56,043 nucleotides of DNA. It comes from a virus. Lineage: Duplodnaviria; Caudoviricetes. Position numbers and translations under genes: made by a program. Each line of letters opens with the position of its first letter. Positions within the stretch are counted from its first letter, which is position 1. This document shows, piece after piece, positions 21,464-35,270 of the stretch. Location: positions 1-56,043 of IMG/VR virus record IMGVR_UViG_3300044836_000026; one strand, given 5' to 3'. The notes under the pieces were generated by a model. It was not told where the DNA came from. It worked only from the letters and a program-made list of their open reading frames with translations, and ran no database searches.

Positions 21464-24400
21464 ATGGCTGTTACTCATTACACACAGTGGAAGAGTCGGG
21501 TTCGCGGAACGCTGAACGGTGAAGGTGCGCTTTTTGAAATCCGAATTAATGTCGGTACGAATGATTACGATTGGGATGTTTCAAACCCTACCGATAGTAT
21601 TTTGCTAAAGGACTTGATCGTTTCCGATTTTGGCAGAACAAGATGGCAACGATTCGACGAGAACGCGGATATGGTAGCCGCTCAAAGAATCATAGAAATC
21701 ATTGACAGTTTTTCCTTTAATGGGATGGTGGACGGTTCGGAGATAGGCGTTCAGGATTTGATACCTGAAAAGACTTCACTTATCCCGTTCATTTTTAACG
21801 ACCCTGCAAAAACATATCATGTTTGGCTTTCACATCTTGACCCTAACGATTTCTCTTTGATAGAGATTTACTTTTACGGTCAGGTAGTTATTCCGTTTTT
21901 TGAAGGACAGTTCAATCTCGTTTTTCAGCCTATGGGTAACGCTGAAATGAAGCGTCAAACAAAGAAAATATTAATCACATCGGTATCTGAACTTTTAAAA
22001 AATAGATCAATAGAAGAGATAGTTTCCGGCTCTATGACAGACGGTGTTCATGACGGGATAGTAGCGGGATTAGGCGCGGCGGATGTTTTCACTATCGGCG
22101 GATTCGATACGAAATATAAACCGTGGTTTTATGGCATGATTCAAAACCCGGATTATGGCGGACTCGGGCCTGAACCGATAGACGGGTTTTACAATAAGAT
22201 TGCACAGTTTCAGGCTGCCGGAACGCTTATTACAAACACGTTTAATCCGTGCTACTATGTAGGTGGTAGTAAGTCGGTTAACCCGCTGTTCCCTTTTGGG
22301 TGGAGTAATAACATGTATGGAATGCCAGATGGATTTCAGGCGGTTTCATATGCTACGGTTCTTGGTAAAATGGCAGAGATTGCCGGATTTACTTTTTCTT
22401 CCGCTGACTCAGATAATGTTTTTGCACAGTACATACCAAGTTTTACAACGTTTACCGTGGACGGGGTTAATGCGGATAGGTATAATTTGCAGGGACTTAT
22501 TGACACCCATATTTTGGATGTCGTTGCTATTAACTATAATGTACGGTTCGGTGTAAAACCAGTTATTCCGAATCAATTACATTTCTCGCAGAACGACGAT
22601 GACGGTTCATTCCAAACCGTGGCAATAGATAGTGTAGCGGGAACATCCCCAACTATTCTAACGCTACACGATGAAATAAATATGATCGTTGGTATCTCCG
22701 GTCAAAGAATAGGAATTAATGACGGCGCGGGGAAGCACGTTTATTACATGACGGTGATAGATCAAACGCACGTATCATTACAGAATGCGGCGGGTTCTCC
22801 GGCTTCATATTCAATGACAGGAACAGCGGCTTTATATTACGCTAATTCGGCTTATTGGGATTGGAATACTCCGGTGACTTTTGATAGAACCAAAAGTTTT
22901 TCGGAGATGCTGAAAATAATCTGTTTCCGTTTTGGCTATTTGATAGATTGGGATATTCATCAAAGCGGCCCGAATAAAGGTTTGCCGAAATTGATTCTCC
23001 GCGATATGCTAAAGAGCGCGGGTTCTATTCCTTCGGCGTGGCAGTCTCAGACTCGTTCGGCTATGGTATTAGGTGGAGATACCGGAGCGAAACAACTCCC
23101 AAAACAAAATGTCGCCCTTCATTATGCGGGGGATGACGCTAAAATTTATTGCCCGGTTGCTACGGGTGAAAGTATCTCTATTGAAATTAATGGCAGGTCA
23201 AAACAGTGGGGGAGAAAATTCGGATATATACTTTCCGATATTATCAATAATGCGAATGAGGCTACAGGACAACAACAAGATACATGCTTCGGAGTTATTA
23301 CAATAACCGATAAGGCCCCAACCCCCAACGTATTTTTCACTATTGACTTAACTTCTCCGAGCGGGTGGGTTCCGGGCGCGGCAGATTATTACTATCTGGA
23401 CAACCCCTCTTCAATGTATAACAGTACGCTTTTAGTGTCTGCTATACTAACCGATACCGGAGACTGGAGTGGATTTTATCCTATATCTTATGAAGATTAT
23501 GGAGCCGCTCAATCTTTAGACTGGGACGCTCGTTTACCGGATGCAACAACTATCCACGACGGAAGGAATACCCCTTTATGGGACAACCGATTCAATACAT
23601 TAAATGCAAAAGCCATTTATTATGCTAACGTATTCCTGAATTCTTCTACCGTTGAGAATAGGTCATTTAATACAGCTACAGACGACGACGGAATGATACG
23701 AACTCTCCGTCCATGCTTAACGGGTGACTGGCAGGATGAAGACGGCATTGTAAGAACTCATTTGATTCATTCAATAGAAGTTGATGAAAGCCATAGTTTG
23801 TGTATCTGTCAAATCGTACCCGCTCCGCCTTCTCCGGGGAGCATGGTGCAATACGAGGTAGTTGTTAAAAACGGGAGCGGCGGTGGTGGCAGTACAGGCG
23901 GGGCCGGGGTTAATACAGGTGGCGGCGGTGGTACAAATCCATCAAATACAGGTGGCTTCGTTAAGACGCTTCCGAAGTCTCCATCTGATAATATTGTTCA
24001 GGGGGATACCGATACACAAAAAGAATTAATCCTACGGGATAAATCCGATACTCATTCAGCAGATAAGCTAATTATTGATAACAAGGACGGTACAATAATT
24101 TACGGCGGTTTGCATGGATACGGTTCCACACTTGCACTCGGCAAGATGTTCTTTACTAATACTAAGAACGCTTTTGAAATAAAATCAGACGGTGCAAATA
24201 CCGGCGAGTTCCGATTCTATAATACAGGCGGGACGCACTATACCGCAATAAAAGCGAACGGCACAATAGCTTCGGATGTAACTTTCACTCTGCCTAATGC
24301 GGACGGCTCAAATACGTTCGTTATTCAAACCAACGGTATCGGTGTTCTCTCCTTCGTTGACCCCACAAGTTTCATCCCAACAGCGGCGGTTATTTTAGCT

Positions 24401-25741
24401 CCTTCAACTCCGAACAGGAACCGCATTCAATCCACGGCAAACAATACATCCGCCTTAGAAATAAAAGGGCGGACTTCGGAAAGCGTACCACATTTTGTTG
24501 TCACCGATTCAACAGGTACAAATCAATTCACAATAGACAATACATCGGCAAATTTTTTCGATCAAAATTTATGGATAATACAGGTCGCCGGAAGAAGCGG
24601 GATAGGATTAGTCTCAGCGGGGCCGAGTCTCAGCTTCGGTAATTCAGGAGATGTTCTTACAAGCGGCGGCCCCTCTGGCCCTCTTTCATGGACTCCTCCT
24701 TCAACGGGCGGCGTGACTTCAATCACGGGAACGGTTCATCAAATCATTGCATCCGCTTCAACAGGAGCCGTTACACTTTCAACCCCACAAGATATAGATA
24801 CAACTTCTGCCGTTCGCTTTGCGCGGTTGGGTTTAGGCGTGAATCCCGATGCATCTATACCGCTGTTAGTTGACCGTAGCGCAGTTGGAGCCTCTCACGT
24901 TGACGGTATCGTATCGCAGAATGTTACAGCAGCTACAAGCGGCGTACAGGCACAGTTCGCACCACGGATACGGCAACATGCCTCACTTTGGAATACTGGC
25001 TCCGGTGGATCATCAAAAACGGTAGACGCTGTTTTGAGATTATCTACCACGGGCGGACTTTCAGTAAACCCGTTCAGTTGGAATTTATCTGTTGATAATA
25101 GTGATGGCTCCGGCTATGTTGATTATATTATATTAGGCTACACGGCATCTTCAACACGATTCGTTCAGTTCCCGACGTATGCAAGCACAGACGGGGTTGT
25201 AACGTTGAATGGTGGGACACTCACCATGAACACGCTTGCTGCGAATAGTATTCTTTTCGCAGGTTCGACAACCGCGGTGAACGGAAGTTCGGCTAATTTT
25301 AAGTTTGCCCCTTCTACGGGGTTGCTTATAAAACAGCCAACGTCCGGCAACCTGATCGAAACTCTACAGAGCAATGGATCAAGTAGTAAAACTCAGGCAA
25401 ACGAAGCTACCGTTGCAGGTGGGGCAACTACGCTCATAGACACATTTGCCACCGCATCCGATACGGTAATAACGTGCCGATATGTGGTGACATGGAGACA
25501 GACCAACGGAGCTAATCTGGGCAAGGGAGGGTTTGATATTATTCAATCCGCCTACCATAATATATCTGGCGTATTAGTCCAGATAGGGGGGGATGCTCAT
25601 GGGGGGGTAGACGATTCCAACGTACCGACACCTACGGCGGCTACGAATGTTAACGGTACATCCATTGAGATAAAACTCACAGCACCCGCGACCCATAATT
25701 ATAATGTTTCTGTTTTTTCAACTTATTACGAAAGAGCGTGA
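21464..25741 (+). CDS. large tail tip/hub protein fused to fibre modules
   Basis: 1425 aa; first structural gene after TMP; Gly-rich linker then fibre motifs (TFTLPNADG, GDVLTSGG, GGVTSITG). Confidence 0.75.
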   Translation: MAVTHYTQWKSRVRGTLNGEGALFEIRINVGTNDYDWDVSNPTDSILLKDLIVSDFGRTRWQRFDENADMVAAQRIIEIIDSFSFNGMVDGSEIGVQDLIPEKTSLIPFIFNDPAKTYHVWLSHLDPNDFSLIEIYFYGQVVIPFFEGQFNLVFQPMGNAEMKRQTKKILITSVSELLKNRSIEEIVSGSMTDGVHDGIVAGLGAADVFTIGGFDTKYKPWFYGMIQNPDYGGLGPEPIDGFYNKIAQFQAAGTLITNTFNPCYYVGGSKSVNPLFPFGWSNNMYGMPDGFQAVSYATVLGKMAEIAGFTFSSADSDNVFAQYIPSFTTFTVDGVNADRYNLQGLIDTHILDVVAINYNVRFGVKPVIPNQLHFSQNDDDGSFQTVAIDSVAGTSPTILTLHDEINMIVGISGQRIGINDGAGKHVYYMTVIDQTHVSLQNAAGSPASYSMTGTAALYYANSAYWDWNTPVTFDRTKSFSEMLKIICFRFGYLIDWDIHQSGPNKGLPKLILRDMLKSAGSIPSAWQSQTRSAMVLGGDTGAKQLPKQNVALHYAGDDAKIYCPVATGESISIEINGRSKQWGRKFGYILSDIINNANEATGQQQDTCFGVITITDKAPTPNVFFTIDLTSPSGWVPGAADYYYLDNPSSMYNSTLLVSAILTDTGDWSGFYPISYEDYGAAQSLDWDARLPDATTIHDGRNTPLWDNRFNTLNAKAIYYANVFLNSSTVENRSFNTATDDDGMIRTLRPCLTGDWQDEDGIVRTHLIHSIEVDESHSLCICQIVPAPPSPGSMVQYEVVVKNGSGGGGSTGGAGVNTGGGGGTNPSNTGGFVKTLPKSPSDNIVQGDTDTQKELILRDKSDTHSADKLIIDNKDGTIIYGGLHGYGSTLALGKMFFTNTKNAFEIKSDGANTGEFRFYNTGGTHYTAIKANGTIASDVTFTLPNADGSNTFVIQTNGIGVLSFVDPTSFIPTAAVILAPSTPNRNRIQSTANNTSALEIKGRTSESVPHFVVTDSTGTNQFTIDNTSANFFDQNLWIIQVAGRSGIGLVSAGPSLSFGNSGDVLTSGGPSGPLSWTPPSTGGVTSITGTVHQIIASASTGAVTLSTPQDIDTTSAVRFARLGLGVNPDASIPLLVDRSAVGASHVDGIVSQNVTAATSGVQAQFAPRIRQHASLWNTGSGGSSKTVDAVLRLSTTGGLSVNPFSWNLSVDNSDGSGYVDYIILGYTASSTRFVQFPTYASTDGVVTLNGGTLTMNTLAANSILFAGSTTAVNGSSANFKFAPSTGLLIKQPTSGNLIETLQSNGSSSKTQANEATVAGGATTLIDTFATASDTVITCRYVVTWRQTNGANLGKGGFDIIQSAYHNISGVLVQIGGDAHGGVDDSNVPTPTAATNVNGTSIEIKLTAPATHNYNVSVFSTYYERA

Positions 25742-26068
25742 GTATAGAGATAGGATTTCGCAATCAGAATTTTATAAGCACTCCGGTTACAGAGGCCCAT
25801 GCATCCATAATGAATATTGATGCAAGCACAGGGATGTTCCATTCATGGACGGCCATAGGTGCAGAGACGATTAACGTCATTAATGGCGTATCCGGTAACA
25901 GGATCATACTCACAATCACCTGCGATGCCGTAGCGCGATTAATAACAATCGGCACCGGAGTAAGCATGAATATTTCATCGCTACTTCTTACATCCTTAAA
26001 AGACTTCGATAATATCGTTAGATCACAATGGAGTGTCTTTTGTCGGTTCTGCGATAACCCTTTTATAA
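25738..26068 (+). pseudogene. fibre-associated small beta protein with apparent 1-nt insertion
   Basis: Removing one A from the 25998-26001 run gives ...LKTSIISLDHNGVSFVGSAITLL* ending 26068, just before the next promoter and gene. Confidence 0.55.
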
Positions 26069-26086
26069 ATTCCGTATATTTGCATC

Positions 26087-26251
26087 ATGGAAGAAAAAAC
26101 ACAGAAAGAATTAGAAATAGAGCATGCAAAAAAGATTTTGCAGGAAGAAAAGAACGCGATTCTAAAAGAATTTCATTCTGAATTAGAAATGCTTCTCAAA
26201 AAATACCCTACTGTTGAAATCAATTCCGTTGTGCAAATACAGATCAAATAA
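26087..26251 (+). CDS. small hypothetical protein (54 aa, not in ORF track)
   Basis: MEEKTQKELEIEHAKK...; TATATTTG upstream; stop overlaps next ATG. Confidence 0.65.
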   Translation: MEEKTQKELEIEHAKKILQEEKNAILKEFHSELEMLLKKYPTVEINSVVQIQIK

Positions 26252-26502
26252 TGTCACAACTTAACACACCTAAAATAATAGTCAACCCACAAACGGCTAA
26301 AGAGTTTGAAGAAAAGAAAGCTAAGGACGCCGAAACGATATACCTTGAAGAAGAGACAAAAGCGGCTGAGGGCTTCAAACTCTGGTGCGAAACTATGAAC
26401 GTTATCCCAAACCCCGTTCTACAGATGAACTACTCAGCGGCACAGGGGATTAACATAACGGGTAGCGGGGTAGGGTTTATTAGTAAACGTAGGATGCAAT
26501 AA
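26251..26502 (+). CDS. hypothetical protein
   Basis: TAATG coupling to the upstream gene. Confidence 0.65.
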   Translation: MSQLNTPKIIVNPQTAKEFEEKKAKDAETIYLEEETKAAEGFKLWCETMNVIPNPVLQMNYSAAQGINITGSGVGFISKRRMQ

Positions 26503-26599
26503 AATTCCGTGGAAACTCATAAGAAATCTTCGGGAACTTTGAACATCTATATGATTCTAAACGTTTTAGAGTGGGCTTAAATCAAACACTCTGAAACGC

Positions 26600-26920
26600 G
26601 TGGAACATGAAAAAATACAATGCGCAAGGTGCCCAAAGGAGCGTCTATCTTACTCTTGGTATTGTCGCTACCACTTAACAGATTATAAAAGATCGCGGCG
26701 AAGAATAGCATCCGTATCTGAAAAGGAAAAAGTTAGGCAAAAAGCCCAGAAAATAATTTTAAGACCATGCTTAATTTGCGGCACGACCGAGAATGTTCAG
26801 AGACATCACCCTGATTACGTTAAGCCATACGAGGTTGATTTTCTTTGCGAGAAGCACCATAAGGAGTATCATGTAAGAAGGAATAATCTTATAAAGCATA
26901 AAGAGGGTATTAAGTTTTGA
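26600..26920 (+). CDS. HNH-like zinc-binding endonuclease
   Basis: CLICG..NVQRHHPDY.KP.EV.FLCEKHH..H. Confidence 0.75.
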   Translation: MEHEKIQCARCPKERLSYSWYCRYHLTDYKRSRRRIASVSEKEKVRQKAQKIILRPCLICGTTENVQRHHPDYVKPYEVDFLCEKHHKEYHVRRNNLIKHKEGIKF

Positions 26921-26994
26921 ATTAGAGACAAAGCGTTCTCCCTGCTTGATTAAAACACCTCTCACCGTTTCACAGTTATAAGAATACCGATGTC

Positions 26995-27023
26995 AACCCC
27001 GGATTTAAGGAGCCGGGGTTTTT
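26995..27023 (+). terminator. intrinsic terminator
   Basis: AACCCCGG...CCGGGGTT then T-run. Confidence 0.7.
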
Positions 27024-27184
27024 ATTTGTGTATATTTGCATCCGTAAGTCAATTAGTTGATTAATCAACAACGTTTCCCGTGGCTCCCCTCTTTCAGTGG
27101 CATGAAATGAGGGGAATTTTATTTGCAATGAATATTCGCTCCGGTTTGTTATCATCACGAACTCCCGAACCAATAAAACATACC

Positions 27185-27385
27185 ATGAAATATATTATCA
27201 AATCCGAAGGCAAGAACAGCCCGAACACTAAGGGCGTGTACGATACTAATACCAAATCCATCCGTTCACAGAACAACCCCCGTGACGGTGAGTTTGAAGC
27301 TACTCAGGAAGTTGCTAATGCCAAACTTGCAGAGGCTACAGCCTATGCAGATAAGCATGACGCTACCGTGACGTTATCTAATTAA
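27185..27385 (+). CDS. small hypothetical moron with its own terminator
   Basis: ATG 27185; flanked by hairpins. Confidence 0.65.
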   Translation: MKYIIKSEGKNSPNTKGVYDTNTKSIRSQNNPRDGEFEATQEVANAKLAEATAYADKHDATVTLSN

Positions 27386-27408
27386 CGAAATGGAAATCTG
27401 CTTTCTTG

Positions 27409-27433
27409 AAGTCCCGGTAACGGGGCTTTTTTT
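27409..27433 (+). terminator. intrinsic terminator
   Basis: AAGTCCCG-GTAA-CGGGGCTT then T-run. Confidence 0.8.
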
Positions 27434-27561
27434 ATGGAATTTTTTATCCTTCTTTTTCCTTCTCAGTACATCCGACTCTCACCTCAGATAACGGCAACCG
27501 CCGATAAACAATATATTGAAAAATTCATGAGGGGAAAATACATTCCACAGAGGTACGTTCT

Positions 27562-28029
27562 ATGAACATGATACATGATGTTATGCACCCACATGGATCA
27601 TGCATTTTATGGGATGACTACTTAGTGTATTCATTGCTCATAAGCAATATAGTTATTTTTCTTTGCTATGTTTCTATCCCTGTATCCTTAATGATAATTT
27701 ATCGGAGGACGAAATTCAGGGAGGCGTTTTCAGGCAGTAGATTTTTTATTTTTGGGTTTTCGTTATTCATCGTTCTTTGTGGCTTAACACATGGATGGGA
27801 TGTAGTAACAATGTATGTTCCGTTGTGGCATGTTGATTCTCTGTTGAGAGTTGCAACAGCGACAGCGAGTTTATATGTAGCCGTAGCCTTTATCCCCTTT
27901 GCAAAAACAATCATTAATCGCCCGACGCGTGAAGAATACTTAGAGTTGGAAGCTCGCGCAAACGCGGCAGAACTCAAAGCGTCACAAGCGGCTCTTGAAC
28001 TTCTTAGGATCGCTAAAGCAAATGGATAA
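27562..28029 (+). CDS. stand-alone ethylene-receptor (ETR1-type) 3-TM sensor domain protein
   Basis: PHGSC.LW; ISNIVIFLCYVSIP; FIVLCGLTH; LRVATATAS; then a short coiled coil; no GAF or kinase domain. Confidence 0.88.
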   Translation: MNMIHDVMHPHGSCILWDDYLVYSLLISNIVIFLCYVSIPVSLMIIYRRTKFREAFSGSRFFIFGFSLFIVLCGLTHGWDVVTMYVPLWHVDSLLRVATATASLYVAVAFIPFAKTIINRPTREEYLELEARANAAELKASQAALELLRIAKANG

Positions 28030-28334
28030 TGGAAACGTGGCAAATTGTTTTAGGGCTTGCAGGATCAAGTGTCATTACTGTATTGGTGACAAATTTCTTC
28101 TCTCGAAGAAAAACCAAAGCGGAAACGGAGCAAATAGAGGGCAATATTACAAAAACGAATGTTGATTCTGCAATTACAATAGTGAACGCATGGAAAGAAC
28201 TGAATGCGGAAAACAAAGCGGACATTGCAGAGAATAAGCGGAAAATTGAAGTAATTGAAGGAGCATTGAAAAAAGCAATCACAGACCACAAAGATTGCGA
28301 AGAGAGAATTTTGAAATTAGAGCGCAAAGCATAA
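28029..28334 (+). CDS. holin/antiholin-like TM plus coiled-coil protein
   Basis: N-terminal TM, SRRKTKAE, coiled coil; lysis-region context. Confidence 0.6.
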   Translation: METWQIVLGLAGSSVITVLVTNFFSRRKTKAETEQIEGNITKTNVDSAITIVNAWKELNAENKADIAENKRKIEVIEGALKKAITDHKDCEERILKLERKA

Positions 28335-28389
28335 GAAGCGCGGGGTTACAAAGTTTCGGAAGAACACTTAAAATAAGCAAACATGAAAG

Positions 28390-28737
28390 ATGTTCGACAT
28401 AGATTTTTCGGATGTAGTTGCAAAGTTAATAGTTCTGTTACTAACGTCCGCTTCTTTCATAGGTGGGTGCGTGAAGACGTACAAATTCCTAAGAGTAAAA
28501 TATAAGGAAGCGCAACAAGTGACACGAAATTATACGGTAACCGATGCAATGCTCTGGAAGGCTTTAGGAGCTTTTTCCGCTTCATTCTTCGGTATAATCG
28601 CATTTTGCATGTTCGTTTTTTTTTATGTTCAAAGCATGATAATGACGGATATGGTAGGCAGGGCTGAGAACTTCAAAGAACTTTCCGCGAAAGTGGAAAG
28701 AATTGATACCACAACAATCAAAAAAACTTCCCAATGA
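28390..28737 (+). CDS. two-TM membrane protein (holin candidate)
   Basis: Two hydrophobic segments. Confidence 0.55.
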   Translation: MFDIDFSDVVAKLIVLLLTSASFIGGCVKTYKFLRVKYKEAQQVTRNYTVTDAMLWKALGAFSASFFGIIAFCMFVFFYVQSMIMTDMVGRAENFKELSAKVERIDTTTIKKTSQ

Positions 28738-29126
28738 ATTATAACAACTCTGATACGATTTCTTATTTTACAAACGCTTCCGGTAATGATTGCAGGGCTT
28801 TTGCATCTGACATCGTCACTTACGGTTGGAATTTTGCATGGACAGCGCGTTTCAATTTTACAACGCGCTTTATTAATTCGATGACAGATGTTTTTCAGAT
28901 TGAAAAGGATCACACGGTTGCCGCGTTGAATCTCTTAGGCGCGGCGAAGGATGCGGGGTATACCATTGATTATAGCGGGGCAAATATCATTGACACAAAT
29001 TCGGGCGGTGGTAGTCATCCGAATGCCGGAGCTTTCCATGTACATACTGATTGGATAGTTGTAAATTTACCACCACCTACAGTGTGTCTCGCGTCATTTT
29101 GGATAGAGCATAAAGCCGCCGCATGA
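28734..29126 (+). CDS. hypothetical protein
   Basis: ATGA-coupled on both sides. Confidence 0.65.
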   Translation: MNYNNSDTISYFTNASGNDCRAFASDIVTYGWNFAWTARFNFTTRFINSMTDVFQIEKDHTVAALNLLGAAKDAGYTIDYSGANIIDTNSGGGSHPNAGAFHVHTDWIVVNLPPPTVCLASFWIEHKAAA

Positions 29127-29560
29127 ATCTATACTCCGAAGGCAAAGAAGGTATGCTATTAACGATACGAAGATACAAGTCCAGTGATAAGGGTACGGTC
29201 GGAAGATTGTATGTCGATGGAGTGTATCAATGTTTCACGTTAGAAGATATTGTTCGCCCTGAGGGAGAAAAGATTTACGGAAAGACTGCTATTCCCGCCG
29301 GAAACTATGAAGTCATTATTGATATGTCAAAACGATTCGGGAAGCTAATGCCGCATGTTCTAAACGTGCCTATGTTTGACGGTATCCGTATTCACGCGGG
29401 AAACACAAGTGGAGACACTTTAGGATGCATTCTTGTAGGTAGAACAAATCCCGTTCGCGGACAAATCGGAGAGAGTCAACTTGCATTCGATGCGCTTATG
29501 TCAACGCTGAAGCACGGACTGCAAAACGGAAAGATTTTTTTGGATATAATGAACGCCTAA
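29123..29560 (+). CDS. DUF5675-family putative endolysin (L,D-transpeptidase-like)
   Basis: TLED, TAIPAG.Y, GIRIHAGNT..DT.GCILVG. Confidence 0.85.
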   Translation: MNLYSEGKEGMLLTIRRYKSSDKGTVGRLYVDGVYQCFTLEDIVRPEGEKIYGKTAIPAGNYEVIIDMSKRFGKLMPHVLNVPMFDGIRIHAGNTSGDTLGCILVGRTNPVRGQIGESQLAFDALMSTLKHGLQNGKIFLDIMNA

Positions 29561-29561
29561 A

Positions 29562-29747
29562 ATGGGACTAATTGAAATCGTTATAGTATTGATAGTCATA
29601 GGGCTTTTGCTCTGGTTAGTCAATACCATGATACCAATGGACGCGAAGATCAAAACGATTCTCAATGTCGTTGTAGTTATCGCGGTCATTCTTTGGCTTG
29701 TAAAGGCATTCTTTCCTGAAATCGGAAATATTCACGTCGGAAAGTGA
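29562..29747 (+). CDS. small two-TM protein (Thivi_2564-like)
   Basis: LIVIGLLLWLVN..IPMDAKIKTILNVVVVIAVILW. Confidence 0.75.
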   Translation: MGLIEIVIVLIVIGLLLWLVNTMIPMDAKIKTILNVVVVIAVILWLVKAFFPEIGNIHVGK

Positions 29748-29893
29748 GCACGATTTACACTACCGTATCATACGGGCTGTTCTTTGGAGCGTTCTTTGTC
29801 GCCGGGTATATGCGTTTACTTGGTGAGGGTATCTTTTTGATGCTTGCCTGTATCGGTTGGAGCTTGTTACCGAGATTGAATTTTCACAAATAA
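29744..29893 (+). CDS. small hydrophobic protein (49 aa, not in ORF track)
   Basis: GTGA overlap with upstream stop; two hydrophobic stretches. Confidence 0.5.
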   Translation: MSTIYTTVSYGLFFGAFFVAGYMRLLGEGIFLMLACIGWSLLPRLNFHK

Positions 29894-29897
29894 TCTT

Positions 29898-30134
29898 ATG
29901 ATGATAGAACTAAGTAGAGAGTGCAAAGCGTGTAAAGGGAAATGCGTTCAAAAGCGCAATGACGGGATTAAAATTGAATGCCCATCCTGTAAAGGTGAGG
30001 GCATCATTTATGCATCTCCCAACATTGAATATCAGTCGCCAAAGTTATCCGAATGGAGTACGCAACCGTTCATAGTATGGGATAGCGCTCCTGTATTAGA
30101 CGGTAACGTGCAAAATTGTTATTTATCACACTAA
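29898..30134 (+). CDS. small DnaJ-type zinc-finger protein
   Basis: CKACKG..CPSCKGEG. Confidence 0.6.
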   Translation: MMIELSRECKACKGKCVQKRNDGIKIECPSCKGEGIIYASPNIEYQSPKLSEWSTQPFIVWDSAPVLDGNVQNCYLSH

Positions 30135-30144
30135 TAAAAAATAT

Positions 30145-30456
30145 ATGCCTAATAACTTCTTAGAAAAATTCAATCCAATGAAGCTCATTTCGAGTGGGCT
30201 TCTTAACTCGTTGCCTTTTATCCTTAGTTCTGTATCGGAACACGCACCTGAAATGGTGACGAAAATTCAGGAACAGATCAAAGCAAAGACGGCAACGAAA
30301 GAGCAAGTCAAACAGGATATTCGGAACATCTTCTTAACAGCCGAAGATTTTACACCGGATGCTGTAGATGCTTGCCTTGAAACACTTAATCAAATCATTG
30401 ACCTTGCTTTTGTTCTTGAAGAACAGGTGGAGGTCGCATTCCCACCGAAAGCATAA
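30145..30456 (+). CDS. hypothetical helical protein
   Basis: ORF in operon. Confidence 0.6.
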   Translation: MPNNFLEKFNPMKLISSGLLNSLPFILSSVSEHAPEMVTKIQEQIKAKTATKEQVKQDIRNIFLTAEDFTPDAVDACLETLNQIIDLAFVLEEQVEVAFPPKA

Positions 30457-30511
30457 TGCTAAAGCGAATTAAAGCATGGTGGGAAAACTTTAAGAAAGAA
30501 ATGAGGCCATA

Positions 30512-30784
30512 ATGTTAGGAATAGGTCAAAGCGGAAAGAGTTGGCAAACTACATTTTTTGGAGTGCTGACAATCTTATGTGGCGCGGCGGTTGTCGTTGG
30601 GGCTTTCATCGTTCCAACGGTTGCCGTGATTGCTATTCCTGCCGGACTTGGATTCATGACTGCCGGAATGGTGGGGCTTAAGGCTAAAGATGTTGGTGTG
30701 ACCGGAGTACCGAATGCACAAAACCCAAAAGATATGGCCGTCACGCCTGAAAAGAAAATTGACATTCCGATCAAAACACAATGA
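30512..30784 (+). CDS. holin-like two-TM protein
   Basis: KSWQTT..G...GLKAKD pattern seen in small phage holin-like proteins. Confidence 0.6.
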   Translation: MLGIGQSGKSWQTTFFGVLTILCGAAVVVGAFIVPTVAVIAIPAGLGFMTAGMVGLKAKDVGVTGVPNAQNPKDMAVTPEKKIDIPIKTQ

Positions 30785-31068
30785 TAGAATTCTTTTTATT
30801 CATTGTCTCCATCGCTTCCGTTACGGGAGTGATTCTATTTTCACGATTCATTAAACTATTTATTAAATTCATGGACAAAGTACAGCAAATTTCAGACGCG
30901 GTAGATGCACTGCAAACATCCCTGAGCACTAAGTTTCAGTCATTGATTGATGAAGTTAGTGCACTACAAGCGGCGGACAACGGGATTGACCCGACACTTC
31001 TTGACCCTATTCTAACAAAGATTAACGGGCTAAAGGATACCGTGGATAATTTCGACGTTACTCCGTAA
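30781..31068 (+). CDS. TM plus coiled-coil protein
   Basis: N-terminal TM, heptad-rich acidic C-terminus. Confidence 0.55.
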   Translation: MIEFFLFIVSIASVTGVILFSRFIKLFIKFMDKVQQISDAVDALQTSLSTKFQSLIDEVSALQAADNGIDPTLLDPILTKINGLKDTVDNFDVTP

Positions 31069-31180
31069 ATAAAAGTTTAGTCAATAGACTAAAATGCGGG
31101 TTACAATATCAAAGGGTACAGGTGAAGGGGCAAACTATCAATACTAACTTTGCCTGTGTCCTTTTTTAATAATACGAATC

Positions 31181-31750
31181 ATGGCAGTAGCAAATCCATT
31201 TTATAGTTTTGTTCTTGGATTCGGCAGAGACTGGTTCTTTCAGCCTGCCGGAAACTCAGAGCCTATAAAAGTATATCGCATCCTTACCAGTAGCGCAACG
31301 AATCCATGCGTTATTACTACCGTTGACAATACTTCAATAGTGGATAATGATAACGTAGTTATTTACTTGCACAATGGAAACGATGCTGTTGTCGGTTCAA
31401 ATGACGGCAATTGGGTAGCTACGCGTACAGGTTCAAAAACATTTACTATTCCGGTAGCAGGACTGAACATCGGTACTGGTGGATATGTAGCCGTGTGCAA
31501 CGACGGTACGGGAGTAACTGCTATTACTTGCCTAATAAAAGAATCCCATACTGAAAATGCCACGATCAATATAACAAAGAGCGGAGTAATGGATACGGCA
31601 AATCTTTTTCAATTCCATTTCTCTTTTACTGCTACAGACATACAAAATCTGACTCCCGGAAGGCAGTATGCAAGAAGTATTTTTTACACGGATGCAGACG
31701 GGAACAAACAGCTTTTAATCAGTGACGAAATTACAGTATACTCACGATGA
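31181..31750 (+). CDS. virion-type beta protein (BppU-like C-terminal half)
   Basis: SATNPCVITT module; FSFTATD.QNLTPG.QY motif. Confidence 0.5.
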   Translation: MAVANPFYSFVLGFGRDWFFQPAGNSEPIKVYRILTSSATNPCVITTVDNTSIVDNDNVVIYLHNGNDAVVGSNDGNWVATRTGSKTFTIPVAGLNIGTGGYVAVCNDGTGVTAITCLIKESHTENATINITKSGVMDTANLFQFHFSFTATDIQNLTPGRQYARSIFYTDADGNKQLLISDEITVYSR

Positions 31751-32091
31751 ACGCAATTATCAATAATACTCCTTATCCGGTGGTAGTTGATGCGACGTTG
31801 GGCGTGTCTATAATTCTTGTTGCTTCAAGTGGAGGCGGTGGTGGGTTGTCGGTTTCCGATTTAGCAAATAATCATACGGCTGAAAGCGAAGCCCCGGCAG
31901 AAACGCCGGACGGGGTTATAACTGATTTTATGTTCAGTCATTCCATATTAAAGGTATACGCTCTTTTAATAAATGGACAGGGGATAAGCGAAGGTTCTGG
32001 TACGGGTGAATACATGAAAGCAAACGATCAAATTATTTTCGATATTCCGCCCGCGATAGGCGACGTTATAAGAATTACTTATCTGTATTAA
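31747..32091 (+). CDS. small fibre-associated beta domain
   Basis: E.P..TPDGV.TDF..LINGQ..Y..IIF..PPAIGDVIRITY. Confidence 0.55.
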   Translation: MNAIINNTPYPVVVDATLGVSIILVASSGGGGGLSVSDLANNHTAESEAPAETPDGVITDFMFSHSILKVYALLINGQGISEGSGTGEYMKANDQIIFDIPPAIGDVIRITYLY

Positions 32092-35000
32092 TGAAAAAAT
32101 TACTTTTCATACTATTCTTTTTATTGTTCGCGGCTTCGGTTATTGCACAAGTCCCACTTACCGTCCGGCAGGGTGGTAGTGGTACGAATACGATCACAGG
32201 GCTTATCTTTGGTCACGGACAAAACCCGTTCACTGGACTTGCAAACGGAAGTAATGGAACAGTCTTAACTATGGTGGGTAGTACCCCAACGTGGGTAACG
32301 CCTACTGGCGGTATGGCTATAGGAAATACCGTAACTGGTTCTTCAACCGGAGCCGTTCTGTTCATCAATGGGACGAACGGTGATATGCTTGCCCAAGATA
32401 ATAATAATTTCTTTTATGATTCATCGTGCAGGTGTTTAGCCATAGCTTCAAATGGCAATGGGGCCTTAACGTCTTTCAGTGTTGGCAGTAGTTTTCAATT
32501 TCAGGTTACATCTGCCGGAGATTTGACAGCGATTAAAGGAGTGACGTATTCGTGGCCTTCTTTGCAAGGTGGGGCAAATACATATTTGAAAAACAACGGT
32601 TCTGGGGCTTTGAGTTGGGCAACGGTATCCGGTGGCGGTGGGTTGACGAATTGGATTGACTCCTTAGCTACAAACCCGCCGAATGATGTGGGTACTCCGG
32701 TTGCGGCGTTTGTAGCTATGAATGCGGCTACTGATGTAACTGTAGTTGTTCAACCTAAAGGCGACGGTGCGTTTTCTGTTGTGATACCGGATAATACCAC
32801 GGCGGGCGGTAACATATTAGGCGTTCAGGCTTTCAATGGCCAATCGCATAGAGACGATCCGACACAAACAGCAAGCGGAGCAAATTCTTCAATCGGTGGT
32901 GGGTACGGAAATACTACGGCGGGAAATGGTGGTGTAGTTGGTGGTGGATTTTTTAATAATAATAATTCAAACTTTTCTTTTATCGGTGGTGGGTATCAAA
33001 ACCTAATAGATAACGCGGACTACTCTTCTATTATTTGCGGGAGAATTGATACGATAGAAAGCGGGGCGAGTCGTTCTGTTATTTTAGGCGGTGAAGGGTT
33101 GACATTAACTCAGGCGGGTTCGCTTGGATTTTTAGCCGGAAATCCTAATGCAATGAGGTTTACCGATAACGGATTCATTCTTGGTAATGCCGATTTGTAT
33201 CTCGGGACGAACAGCGGGAATAACCCGAGCGGCATAAGATTTTATACCGATAATGCAACCGTAGGTGACTTCCCAAACGGAACAAATTATTTAGCATTTC
33301 GCGCCCCGAATTCTCTATCTTCTTCCGTGGATTATACATTCCCGAATGGAGACGGCGCGGATTCATCGGTTCTTTCAACTCATGGAGACGGTACTCTTTT
33401 CTGGCAAACAGTAACAGGCGGAGGCGGTGGTTCCGGTACAGTTACATCCGTAGCCCTTACAGTACCTTCTATTTTTTCCGTATCTGGTAGCCCGGTCACA
33501 ACATCCGGCACTCTCGCTGTAACGCTTGCCACTCAGACTCAGAACAAGGTTTTCGCATCCCCGAACGGTTCAACCGGAGTACCAGCTTTTAGGGCTTTAG
33601 TTGCGGCGGATATTCCTAATTTAGACGCGTCAATTCTAACAGCGGGTACATTGCTTGCCGCTCGTATGCCAGCACTCACGGGGGATGTTACTACAACCGT
33701 TGGAACAGTAGCTACTACAATCGCAAATAACGTCGTTACGTATGCGAAGATGCAAGCAGTTTCGACAACCTCAAAACTGTTAGGTTCATCCTCTACGACT
33801 ACACCAGTTCAGGAAATTACCATTGGTACGGGTTTATCATTAAGCGGTACGACATTAACAGGCAACACCGGAACAGTCACTTCGGTAGGGTTAGCATTAC
33901 CCGCTGAGTTTTCAATCTCAAATTCTCCGATCACTACTACAGGGACACTAACAGGCGCGTGGCAATCACAGACACAAAACAAATTCTTTGCCTCTCCGAA
34001 TGGCAGTAGCGGTACGCCCTCATTCCGTGCGATTGTAGCGGCGGATGTACCGACGTTGAACCAGAACACTACCGGGAGCGCGGCAACTCTTACAACTCCG
34101 AGAGCAATTAATGGAACAAATTTCGACGGTTCAGCGGCTATTACAGTAACGGCGGCGGCGGGGACACTCACCGGAACGACGCTTAATTCTACCGTTGTGA
34201 CATCCTCCCTCACGTCCGTAGGGACGCTCACAGGCGGTTCTACAGGTTCGGGGTTCACCGTAGCACTCGGAACCTCAACGATCACTGGAGCACTCACGGA
34301 AACGCATGGGGGGACGAATCAAACGACCTACACAACCGGGGACATTCTCTATGCATCCGCATCAAATACACTCTCAAAACTTGCCATAGGCAGTAACGGT
34401 AAATACCTCTCTATCTCTTCCGGCATACCCGCGTGGGTGACGTTATCGGCTTTATCTAATCCCATGACAACAACCGGGGATATTATCTATTCATCGGATA
34501 ATTCAGGAACCCCGGCGCGGAGAGCAATCGGTTCATCTGGGGATGTGCTTACGGTTTCAGGCGGCGTGCCTGTTTGGGCCGCTCCTTCGGGCGGGGGTGG
34601 AATATCTGGGGCTACGAATAAAGGCGCGATGTACGCAACGGGAGCCACTACAGGAACAAGCACGGGTGCAATGACGGACGGGCAACTCTTAATAGGTTCG
34701 TCTTCCGGCAACCCGGCTTTAGCCACGATAACGGCAGGGGGTGGAACGACGGTTACCAACGGCGCGAATAGTATCACTATCTCTTCACCAGTCAAAGCGT
34801 ACAGTGTGACGGTGAATTCAGCGGGGCCGAGTTCATCGGCAGAAACAGACATTATTTCAGCTTCTATTCCGGCTAATGATTTTACCGATGGGGACGAAAT
34901 GTTTATTTCATTTATTGATAGTAGTATGAATAATTCTGGTGGCGCAGTGCATCTTACTGTTAATTTCTACTGGGGAGCAAATTCTGCCGCAATAAATACC

Positions 35001-35270
35001 GGATCTACTATAGGTTCAGGTCCGAATCCGGCGCAGATATTAAAGGAGCTTCGCGTAAAAAGGTCGGGCAACACTCTTTGGGCGACATTCACGCCGCCAT
35101 CGGTTTCACTTACTACGGATTTATTTGCAGGGGGTTCCGGAAATAAACTGTATGGCAATTCTTTTTCATCAACTACCACAATAAAACTAACGGCACAATG
35201 GGATACATCGAATGCCAACGTTTATTTAATTCCGTTAGCGGCACGAGTCGAAAGGCATTCTCACAATTAA
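32091..35270 (+). CDS. tail-fibre-like repeat protein with N-terminal Sec signal peptide
   Basis: MKKLLFILFFLLFAASVIA/Q; GTVTSV, FRALVAADIP, HGGTNQT, GDVLTV fibre modules. Confidence 0.75.
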   Translation: MKKLLFILFFLLFAASVIAQVPLTVRQGGSGTNTITGLIFGHGQNPFTGLANGSNGTVLTMVGSTPTWVTPTGGMAIGNTVTGSSTGAVLFINGTNGDMLAQDNNNFFYDSSCRCLAIASNGNGALTSFSVGSSFQFQVTSAGDLTAIKGVTYSWPSLQGGANTYLKNNGSGALSWATVSGGGGLTNWIDSLATNPPNDVGTPVAAFVAMNAATDVTVVVQPKGDGAFSVVIPDNTTAGGNILGVQAFNGQSHRDDPTQTASGANSSIGGGYGNTTAGNGGVVGGGFFNNNNSNFSFIGGGYQNLIDNADYSSIICGRIDTIESGASRSVILGGEGLTLTQAGSLGFLAGNPNAMRFTDNGFILGNADLYLGTNSGNNPSGIRFYTDNATVGDFPNGTNYLAFRAPNSLSSSVDYTFPNGDGADSSVLSTHGDGTLFWQTVTGGGGGSGTVTSVALTVPSIFSVSGSPVTTSGTLAVTLATQTQNKVFASPNGSTGVPAFRALVAADIPNLDASILTAGTLLAARMPALTGDVTTTVGTVATTIANNVVTYAKMQAVSTTSKLLGSSSTTTPVQEITIGTGLSLSGTTLTGNTGTVTSVGLALPAEFSISNSPITTTGTLTGAWQSQTQNKFFASPNGSSGTPSFRAIVAADVPTLNQNTTGSAATLTTPRAINGTNFDGSAAITVTAAAGTLTGTTLNSTVVTSSLTSVGTLTGGSTGSGFTVALGTSTITGALTETHGGTNQTTYTTGDILYASASNTLSKLAIGSNGKYLSISSGIPAWVTLSALSNPMTTTGDIIYSSDNSGTPARRAIGSSGDVLTVSGGVPVWAAPSGGGGISGATNKGAMYATGATTGTSTGAMTDGQLLIGSSSGNPALATITAGGGTTVTNGANSITISSPVKAYSVTVNSAGPSSSAETDIISASIPANDFTDGDEMFISFIDSSMNNSGGAVHLTVNFYWGANSAAINTGSTIGSGPNPAQILKELRVKRSGNTLWATFTPPSVSLTTDLFAGGSGNKLYGNSFSSTTTIKLTAQWDTSNANVYLIPLAARVERHSHN
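33435..34058 (+). repeat. duplicated ~63-aa fibre module
   Basis: GTVTSV...QTQNK.FASPNGS.G.P.FRA.VAAD.P.L at ~33435 and ~33870. Confidence 0.85.

Follow-up and report, generated by a model that had tools for sequence, protein, structure and literature searches.

The IMG/VR virus record IMGVR_UViG_3300044836_000026 (56,043 bases, linear, CheckV completeness 69), analysed over its full length and called the window in the following, is a tailed phage from soil. It encodes the large and small terminase subunits, portal, major head and tape-measure proteins, a helicase, a sliding-clamp-like protein and a methyltransferase. A megablast search with 20 kb of the window gave no match among phage records, and the closest large terminase subunit is only 33% identical to that of the window. 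Of the sequencing runs listed, one DNA run, which may be the source sample, contains the sequence, and no RNA run does. On its plus strand the record carries a short gene for an ETR1_N domain that stands alone. This domain, with three helices and a Cu(I) site, is the ligand-binding part of ethylene receptors such as ETR1 and of thousands of sensor kinases and cyclases in bacteria:

27562..28029, plus strand: stand-alone ETR1_N gene, 155 amino acids (Pfam, AlphaFold2, alignment)

A previous reading of this locus from the letters alone (the sequence-only reading) had described a protein of 155 amino acids with several ETR1-like motifs at this place, and both the open reading frame (ORF) and the motifs are present as described.

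The ETR1_N protein and its ligand site

The assignment to the ETR1 domain is borne out by Pfam. ETR1_N (PF25487) covers residues 22-117 with 63 bits (E 3.3e-17, gathering cut-off 27), the match spans profile positions 3-94 of 97, and searching the complete record in six frames raises the score to 63.7 bits. The match lies far above chance: among 1.84 billion representatives scanned in full with HMMER, 5224 are related at E<=1e-3, of which 1049 reach E<=1e-10. The lack of an output domain, also claimed before, is confirmed: the reading frame stops at residue 155 and Pfam detects no other domain in it. Judged by its domain content, the protein is a member of the ETR1_N family and not a receptor of known architecture, being devoid of GAF, PAS, histidine kinase, GGDEF and MCP modules. 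PHROGs and NCBIfam hold no family for it.

The AlphaFold2 model, built from a 44-row alignment, has a mean predicted local distance difference test score (pLDDT) of 91.6 and shows helices at residues 19-53, 60-85 and 89-118 and a C-terminal helix at 123-153. Hydropathy gives three hydrophobic segments and a charged tail. The charge distribution only (an Arg/Lys-rich loop after helix 1 and the charged tail) suggests an N-out/C-in orientation with the C-terminal helix in the cytoplasm. A solved structure of the ETR1_N domain was not found in the searched copy of the PDB. The BFVD fold search yielded one significant match, a viral protein of 289 amino acids (E 2.4e-4), which has the length of protein gp065 of phage Molly (see below). 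Structure rows from the ESM Atlas all stay below a TM (template modelling) score of 0.5 and are uninformative. The nearest ESM Atlas cluster has a representative of 146 amino acids and 203 members, 93% of them with PF25487, and Uroviricota is its commonest known phylum. A word-based homologue search with the window protein found only the protein itself at near lengths and none at longer lengths. Tblastn against 50,697 phage records found no match for the window protein, nor for the copy on contig G006 (see below), and neither related-locus searches in IMG/VR (with the window protein, one relative and a three-sequence alignment) nor a first metagenome scan gave a match.

Conservation was scored in an alignment of 153 sequences, consisting of the 149 best representatives (without self), the query and three viral copies. 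Cys73 is kept in 152 of them and His77 and Tyr36 in all; Ile39 is found in 143, Pro40 in 136 and Ile70 in 149. His11, Cys14, Tyr36, Phe69, His77 and Ser103 form invariant columns. Tyr36, Ile39, Pro40 and Ile70 match four ETR1 residues that the sequence-only reading lists as binding-critical. Its statement that six of seven binding residues are kept and that the seventh, an Asp, is replaced by Asn at position 29 agrees with the alignment. Position 29 is Asp in 118 sequences, Asn in 33 and Gly in 2. Asn occurs here in 14 of 26 proteins of up to 200 amino acids and in 13 of 101 proteins longer than 300. At position 96, the basic residue of helix 3, Lys is present in 102 sequences and Arg in 33, the window protein carrying Arg96. 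The two positions covary (Asp-Lys 97, Asp-Arg 19, Asn-Arg 13, Asn-Asp 6, Asn-Lys 4), and the commonest residue at 96 among the 33 Asn29-type sequences is Arg (13/33).

The corresponding ETR1 residues are numbered D25, C65, H69 and K91 (PMC10266040, PMC11819568). Copper is reported to be held by Cys65 and His69 (PMC11819568), and Asp25 is reported to help hold it and to pair with Lys91 (PMC10266040). Asp25Asn is described as a natural variant, present in 3.67% of 1221 domains, which is functional and has faster kinetics (PMC10266040; PMC11971883). As far as its residues tell, the metal site of the phage protein is that of a functional domain, of the Asn type with low affinity. Asn29 thus weakens any claim of high-affinity ethylene binding and leaves the domain membership unaffected; ethylene may be the ligand. 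In the Azospirillum receptor the first 130 amino acids are reported to be enough for saturable ethylene binding (PMC11819568), which means that the isolated domain can work alone.

A PHGxC motif (residues 10-14, window positions 27589-27603) precedes helix 1 on the predicted outer side. Its His11 and Cys14 occur in 153 of 153 aligned sequences, and the motif is present in seven of the eight phage copies described below, Molly having only the Cys. This motif could, speculatively, be a second metal-binding or copper-loading site.

The membrane-gene run of the window

The ETR1_N gene lies in the following surroundings:

21464-25741 and 32091-35270: very long fibre-like ORFs
27408..27429, plus strand: terminator-like stem-loop of 9 pairs (5 G-C) followed by a T-run, 3' of ORF 27080-27385 and 130 nt before the ETR1_N gene
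28029..28334, plus strand: partner gene, 101 amino acids, one N-terminal membrane helix (~3-24) and then a charged helical/coiled-coil part (hydropathy)
28390..28737, plus strand: protein of 115 amino acids, two hydrophobic segments, lipobox-like IGGC (residue 24), holin-type or lipoprotein candidate
28734..29126, plus strand: protein of 130 amino acids, 4-nt overlap with both neighbours, no family match in Pfam, PHROG or NCBIfam
29123..29560, plus strand: DUF5675 protein, candidate L,D-carboxypeptidase-type endolysin, 1.1 kb past the ETR1_N gene (Pfam, PHROG)
29562..29747, plus strand: protein of 61 amino acids with two membrane helices, Thivi_2564 family, holin-type candidate right after the candidate lysin gene
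29744..29893, plus strand: membrane protein of 49 amino acids, 4-nt overlap with the preceding gene, last of the packed run

The TAA stop of the ETR1_N gene shares one base with the ATG of the partner gene (sequence GGATAATGG), which is the TAATG coupling to a membrane/coiled-coil gene noted before. Between 27562 and 29893 four of seven gene junctions overlap by 1-4 nt, and from 27562 to 31068 hydrophobic segments occur in eight of twelve ORFs. The ETR1_N gene is the first of this tightly packed run of membrane-protein genes, which holds a candidate lysin, and in this sense the proposal that it heads a lysis-type run holds. Upstream, the terminator-like site at 27408..27429 marks the start of a putative new transcription unit; in the region 25500-31500 there are 10 such sites against 4.4 +/- 2.0 in shuffled sequences. 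Promoter-like sites, one of which is at 27516-27544, are no more frequent than chance predicts (14 against 14.6 expected). An AGAGG Shine-Dalgarno-like motif lies about 9 nt 5' of the ETR1_N start codon.

The "endolysin" of the sequence-only reading is the DUF5675 protein. The domain itself is clear (Pfam 108.6 bits; phrog_1501, E 8e-23), and its lytic role stands as a candidate assignment. Tblastn finds DUF5675 in 221 phage records, among them several crAss-like phages in which it is annotated as "L,D-carboxypeptidase/transpeptidase"; one crAss-like DUF5675 gene adjoins an annotated "lysis regulatory protein/holin". A 2026 preprint places DUF5675 structurally among C82 peptidases and calls its function unknown. 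A PDB sequence search with the DUF5675 protein gave chance-level matches only, and its single-sequence fold has a pLDDT of 31.

The 61-residue protein after the candidate lysin matches NCBIfam NF041949 with 67.7 bits (cut-off 33), and the 115-residue protein has no Pfam, NCBIfam or significant PHROG family. Beyond 29893, up to 31068, follow four more small genes, two of which encode membrane proteins. An ORF of 78 amino acids at 29898-30134 contains two CxxC pairs (zinc-ribbon-like) and has no PHROG match. On the other side, an ORF of 43 amino acids (27434-27565) begins just past the terminator T-run and its TGA overlaps the ETR1_N ATG (ATGA); it shows no family evidence and may be spurious or a leader peptide. 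At 26600-26920, 0.6 kb before the ETR1_N gene, an ORF of 106 amino acids matches HNH-type endonucleases (phrog_2340, E 5.8e-9; phrog_11793, E 3.6e-9). Its position between the tail-fibre gene and the lysis-type run suggests a mosaic junction.

Other phage copies and cellular relatives

IMG/VR, with its 2.9 million contigs, was scanned for three DNA motifs; of the stretches obtained, 2 of 2, 2 of 22 and 4 of 57 proved to be real matches. These scans add six contigs to the window (G001 to G006), which is a lower bound as the scans demand exact motifs; an alignment-based scan of IMG/VR added no contig to these six. Tblastn with the G004 and G002 copies gave a further 8 records, those of the phages Molly and Colly, which are in culture on Maribacter forsetii. 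The domain is hence present in eight phage lineages or contigs: the window, the six IMG/VR contigs and Molly/Colly. Short stand-alone viral homologues, which the sequence-only reading had proposed to look for, do exist, and they are complete genes rather than fragments of host kinases. The eight copies have 139-289 amino acids and none carries a kinase, GGDEF, cyclase or MCP output. The Cys and His of the metal site are kept in all eight. Pairwise identity is 23-45% (66% between G004 and G005) and the G+C content of the loci ranges from 37 to 70%. In a tree of 156 domain sequences, made by a quick method and with many forks unresolved, the viral copies are scattered over four or more positions, which fits one origin as well as several. 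The window protein branches there among short proteins that stand alone, with an SH-aLRT support of 88 that does not decide the matter.

Counting G004 and G005 once, there are seven independent lineages. Four of the seven have an endolysin gene (in the window, the candidate) on the same strand no more than 1.6 kb downstream of the ETR1_N gene, and the four lysins belong to four different families; the suspected linkage to lysis genes recurs in these four lineages. Besides the window, the gene orders in question are:

G003 (70% G+C): fibre-like repeat protein, ORF of 136 amino acids, ETR1_N gene, PAS gene, membrane/coiled-coil gene of 100 amino acids, two-helix gene of 51 amino acids, T4-lysozyme-type gene
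G004 (60% G+C, CheckV 88): tail and fibre genes, ETR1_N gene, partner gene of 129 amino acids (ATGA overlap), ORFs of 172, 139 and 69 amino acids, endolysin-type gene of 144 amino acids
Molly: tail genes, BACON protein, gp063, gp064, gp065, gp066

The G003 lysin, 0.9 kb downstream, matches T4 lysozyme in the PDB (E 2e-9, residues 14-148 aligned) and the endolysin family phrog_7 (E 5e-5). The G004 lysin, 1.6 kb downstream, matches the endolysin family phrog_465 (E 1.2e-10) and phrog_2649 (E 4.6e-6); it has matches in PHROG endolysin families only and none in Pfam or the PDB. Of the proteins in between, the one with 172 amino acids has at least two hydrophobic segments and the one with 139 a signal-like N-terminus. 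In Molly, gp065 (289 amino acids, annotated as hypothetical) matches ETR1_N with 60.9 bits and has about 165 further residues after the domain. It overlaps by ATGA with gp064 (148 amino acids, one helix and a coiled coil) and is followed after 4 nt by gp066, an Amidase_3 endolysin (50.7 bits). Among the four Molly genes checked around the amidase, hydrophobic segments occur only in gp064 and gp065. The accessible text of the published description of Molly lists the amidase as the sole lysis gene, names no holin and speaks of proteins in the vicinity that have 1-4 membrane helices; the word ethylene is absent from its main text as far as accessible (PMC8776804).

Some further observations concern single contigs. 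In G003 (L150, 8972-9430) the PAS gene encodes a coiled-coil and PAS protein of 152 amino acids (30.9 bits), whose GTG start overlaps the ETR1_N TGA (GTGA); from the domains found, this arrangement looks like a sensor split over two polypeptides, still without kinase or cyclase output. In G002 (L006, 9393-11318) the 3' end of the partner gene overlaps a gene for a protein of 641 amino acids, which is anchored at its N-terminus, contains a linker rich in Pro and Thr and has no family match; it could be a lysin, a depolymerase or something else. In G001 the ETR1_N gene lies among small early-type genes, and an HD_5/HD-GYP-type protein (L007, 3729-4448, minus strand, 102 bits) is encoded about 4 kb away, possibly a second signalling gene. 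The G006 contig (L154, 349,660 bases, CheckV 97) has an ETR1_N gene of 139 amino acids amid cell-like genes (a GGQ-motif release-factor-like ORF, small lipoproteins, an ORF of 270 amino acids) and represents a jumbo phage or else cellular DNA that was wrongly assigned to viruses.

In five of the seven lineages the ETR1_N gene overlaps a gene that encodes a single-pass membrane/coiled-coil protein, or such a gene sits one gene away. The overlapping partner is downstream in the window, G002, G004 and G005 and upstream in Molly (ATGA). In the four downstream partners 5-8 residues including a Trp precede the single helix, no Lys or Arg stands before the helix and 2-5 stand just after it (4 in the window), and 75-140 residues of charged helix follow. 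The window partner is accordingly predicted to be N-out/C-in, and by the positive-inside rule its coiled coil would be cytoplasmic, on the same side as the predicted tail of the ETR1_N protein. A pairing of the two tails in the cytoplasm may be inferred from this. The predicted complex of the two window proteins scored 0.00; the prediction had no controls and weighs neither way. Family matches of the window partner are weak (phrog_1397, E 4.6e-4), and a word-based search with it found only itself. An i-spanin, with N-in/C-out orientation and a periplasmic coiled coil acting with an outer-membrane lipoprotein, was considered for the partner and rejected, as the coiled coil is predicted to be cytoplasmic in the window, G002, G004 and G005. 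The ORF after the window partner (28390..28737) has the lipobox-like IGGC but also a second hydrophobic segment.

In cells the domain takes a different form. A bacterial DNA-motif scan with one genome per species gave at least 120 loci. Among the matches listed, 89 of the 93 with a complete 3' end continue for 304-1285 residues past the motif, and the four shorter genes encode 192, 235, 258 and 275 amino acids. A Nitrospirales metagenome-assembled genome (L036, 203 amino acids) holds the only gene among the matches listed that ends after the coiled coil. Like the phage copies, it has the domain and a coiled coil and no output; unlike them it lacks an overlapping membrane/coiled-coil partner, and its neighbours, by reading of their translations, are response-regulator and kinase-like genes, not lysis genes. 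In metagenomes, the 80 best matches to a phage copy include 50 complete genes; 46 of these have at least 328 amino acids, and one of the four short ones lies on a phage contig related to G005. By these counts the ETR1_N domain is common across sequence space and nearly always fused.

Possible roles in the phage

The phage protein shares three membrane helices, the Cys/His of helix 2 and a helix after helix 3 with the ETR1_N domains of plant ETR1/ERS1, Synechocystis SynEtr1 and Azospirillum AzoEtr1. Its Arg96 follows His77 after 19 residues, which is the H79-K98 spacing reported for AzoEtr1 (PMC11819568). It differs from these receptors in the lack of a GAF, PAS, kinase, GGDEF or receiver output, in the Asn in place of Asp25, in the invariant N-terminal PHGxC and in being encoded by a phage, within a putative late membrane-protein operon. 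Small membrane proteins that are encoded beside the endolysin and set the time of lysis are familiar from T4 RI, P1 LydA/LydB and lambda S105/S107, and in T4 the antiholin delays lysis in response to a signal from outside. By Pfam and PHROG the phage protein has no sequence or family relation to any of these, its putative sensor being a metal-cofactor ligand-binding domain from two-component receptors.

Our tentative reading, to which we give nearly even weight, is that the window gene is a component of the lysis cassette, most likely one that regulates holin triggering in response to a ligand, a metal or the redox state and works together with its coiled-coil partner. The free-standing ETR1_N domain would be made by the tailed phage as an inner-membrane protein of 155 amino acids and, through translational coupling, together with the single-pass membrane protein and its predicted cytoplasmic coiled coil. 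The two would belong to the lysis machinery. The signal read by the sensor domain would probably be copper status, redox state, or ethylene or a similar small unsaturated ligand, and with its partner the domain would set the moment at which the holin fires, as an antiholin-like or pro-holin regulator. As the metal site is strictly kept, the domain probably goes on binding its cofactor and so retains a sensing function. The type of lysin shuffles around a constant ETR1_N neighbour, a pattern shown by holins and their regulators.

Several points weigh against a lysis role. All support for it is genomic context, and the stretch between tail-fibre and lysis genes often houses unrelated accessory genes. 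The DUF5675 protein is a candidate lysin, not a proven one. No recognised lysin lies nearby in three of the seven lineages (G001, G002, G006): G002, like the G004 relative G005, has the overlapping partner and no lysin among the scanned ORFs, and in G001 and G006 neither partner nor lysin was found nearby. The partners share their architecture only, as pairwise comparison gives no significant similarity save between G004 and G005 (56%). The ETR1_N protein matches no PHROG or Pfam holin or antiholin family. Other small two-helix proteins, more like ordinary holins, are encoded in the window, G003 and G004, so that the ETR1_N protein is not needed to explain lysis. Finally, Asn at the Asp25 position of ETR1 is reported to lower ethylene affinity about 100-fold and to leave minimal residual copper binding in vitro (PMC10266040).

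A bolder form of the regulator is that phages of very different hosts have repeatedly taken up a Cu(I)-dependent sensor domain which, with its coiled-coil partner, forms a ligand-gated holin switch, lysis being timed by ethylene or another unsaturated molecule, by copper or by the oxidative state. We regard this as rather doubtful.

It is unlikely, in our estimate, that the ETR1_N protein is itself the holin, i.e. the pore or channel former, with the coiled-coil protein as its antiholin or chaperone. Class I holins of the lambda S type have three membrane helices, an N-out/C-in topology and a charged C-terminus, and the phage protein fits them in helix number, predicted topology, charged cytoplasmic tail and, in Molly, the position before the endolysin. 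It is longer than class I holins, belongs to a sensor-domain family and has a conserved Cys/His metal site; a protein that did no more than form pores would not be expected to keep such a site in eight of eight phage copies. In the window, G003 and G004, two-helix proteins lie in or near the holin slot. No annotated holin in BFVD is matched significantly by fold (best E 0.098), and no holin family is matched. Molly gives this alternative its best case: gp065 ends 4 nt before the amidase gene, where a holin gene classically lies, in a phage for which the accessible text names no holin (PMC8776804). Rice ethylene receptors have also been reported as cation-permeable channels, independent of Cys65 (PMC13261662).

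Quite unlikely is a decoy or hijacker, in which the free sensor domain would form mixed dimers with host ETR1_N kinases or cyclases and so alter biofilm, motility or receptor expression. Cellular sensors, of which there are many (the 5224 relatives), dimerise through this domain and the helix after it, and known bacterial receptors of this type are reported to govern biofilm and motility (PMC11819568). G001 and G006 lie outside lysis settings, G001 has its HD_5/HD-GYP-type gene 4 kb away, and G003 couples the domain to a separate PAS protein. Mixed dimers leave unexplained why the gene is placed by four lysin families and coupled to a membrane/coiled-coil partner. Moreover, identity among the phage copies is only 23-45%, and between the window protein and its nearest long fused relative at most 42%, and such low identities fit poorly with specific mixed-dimer formation. 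Drawn as it is from genomic context, the evidence favours a lysis role over a decoy.

Just as improbable is an accessory membrane gene unrelated to lysis that sits by chance in a tail/lysis hot spot and might serve to exclude superinfecting phages, to handle copper or to protect the infected cell. Accessory genes beside lysis or tail-fibre genes are exemplified by lambda bor and lom, the HNH-type ORF 0.6 kb upstream suggests a mosaic region, and the lysis context is absent in three of seven lineages; against this, overlapping stop and start codons join the ETR1_N gene to membrane genes in five of the eight phage contigs (six with the G003 PAS gene), and finding four of seven lineages within 1.6 kb upstream of a lysin has a chance of about 2e-4 under random placement in a 40-125 kb genome, by our own binomial estimate, which ignores the general clustering of membrane genes.

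Our literature search, which covered few subscription journals, found no report of a phage-encoded ETR1_N-type domain, in line with the earlier impression that no phage system of this kind has been described. The domain is known; its free-standing phage form, the coupled partner and the link to lysis genes appear to be new. The ethylene-binding domain has been known only as the input of large receptors, and the short free-standing phage versions are a small and well-predicted target for structural work and for work on copper and ethylene binding. If a ligand-gated switch were true, it would be the first receptor-type, small-molecule-gated control of lysis, and the phage protein would be a natural minimal form of a domain that has so far resisted structure determination. 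With Molly/Colly and their host in culture and the gene 4 nt from the endolysin, the idea is directly testable. Should the lysis link fail, phages would still carry sensor-domain-only proteins able to interfere with host signalling. Should it hold, the ETR1_N protein, as a lysis-cassette component of a new kind, would let a chemical or a metal in the environment influence when the host is lysed.

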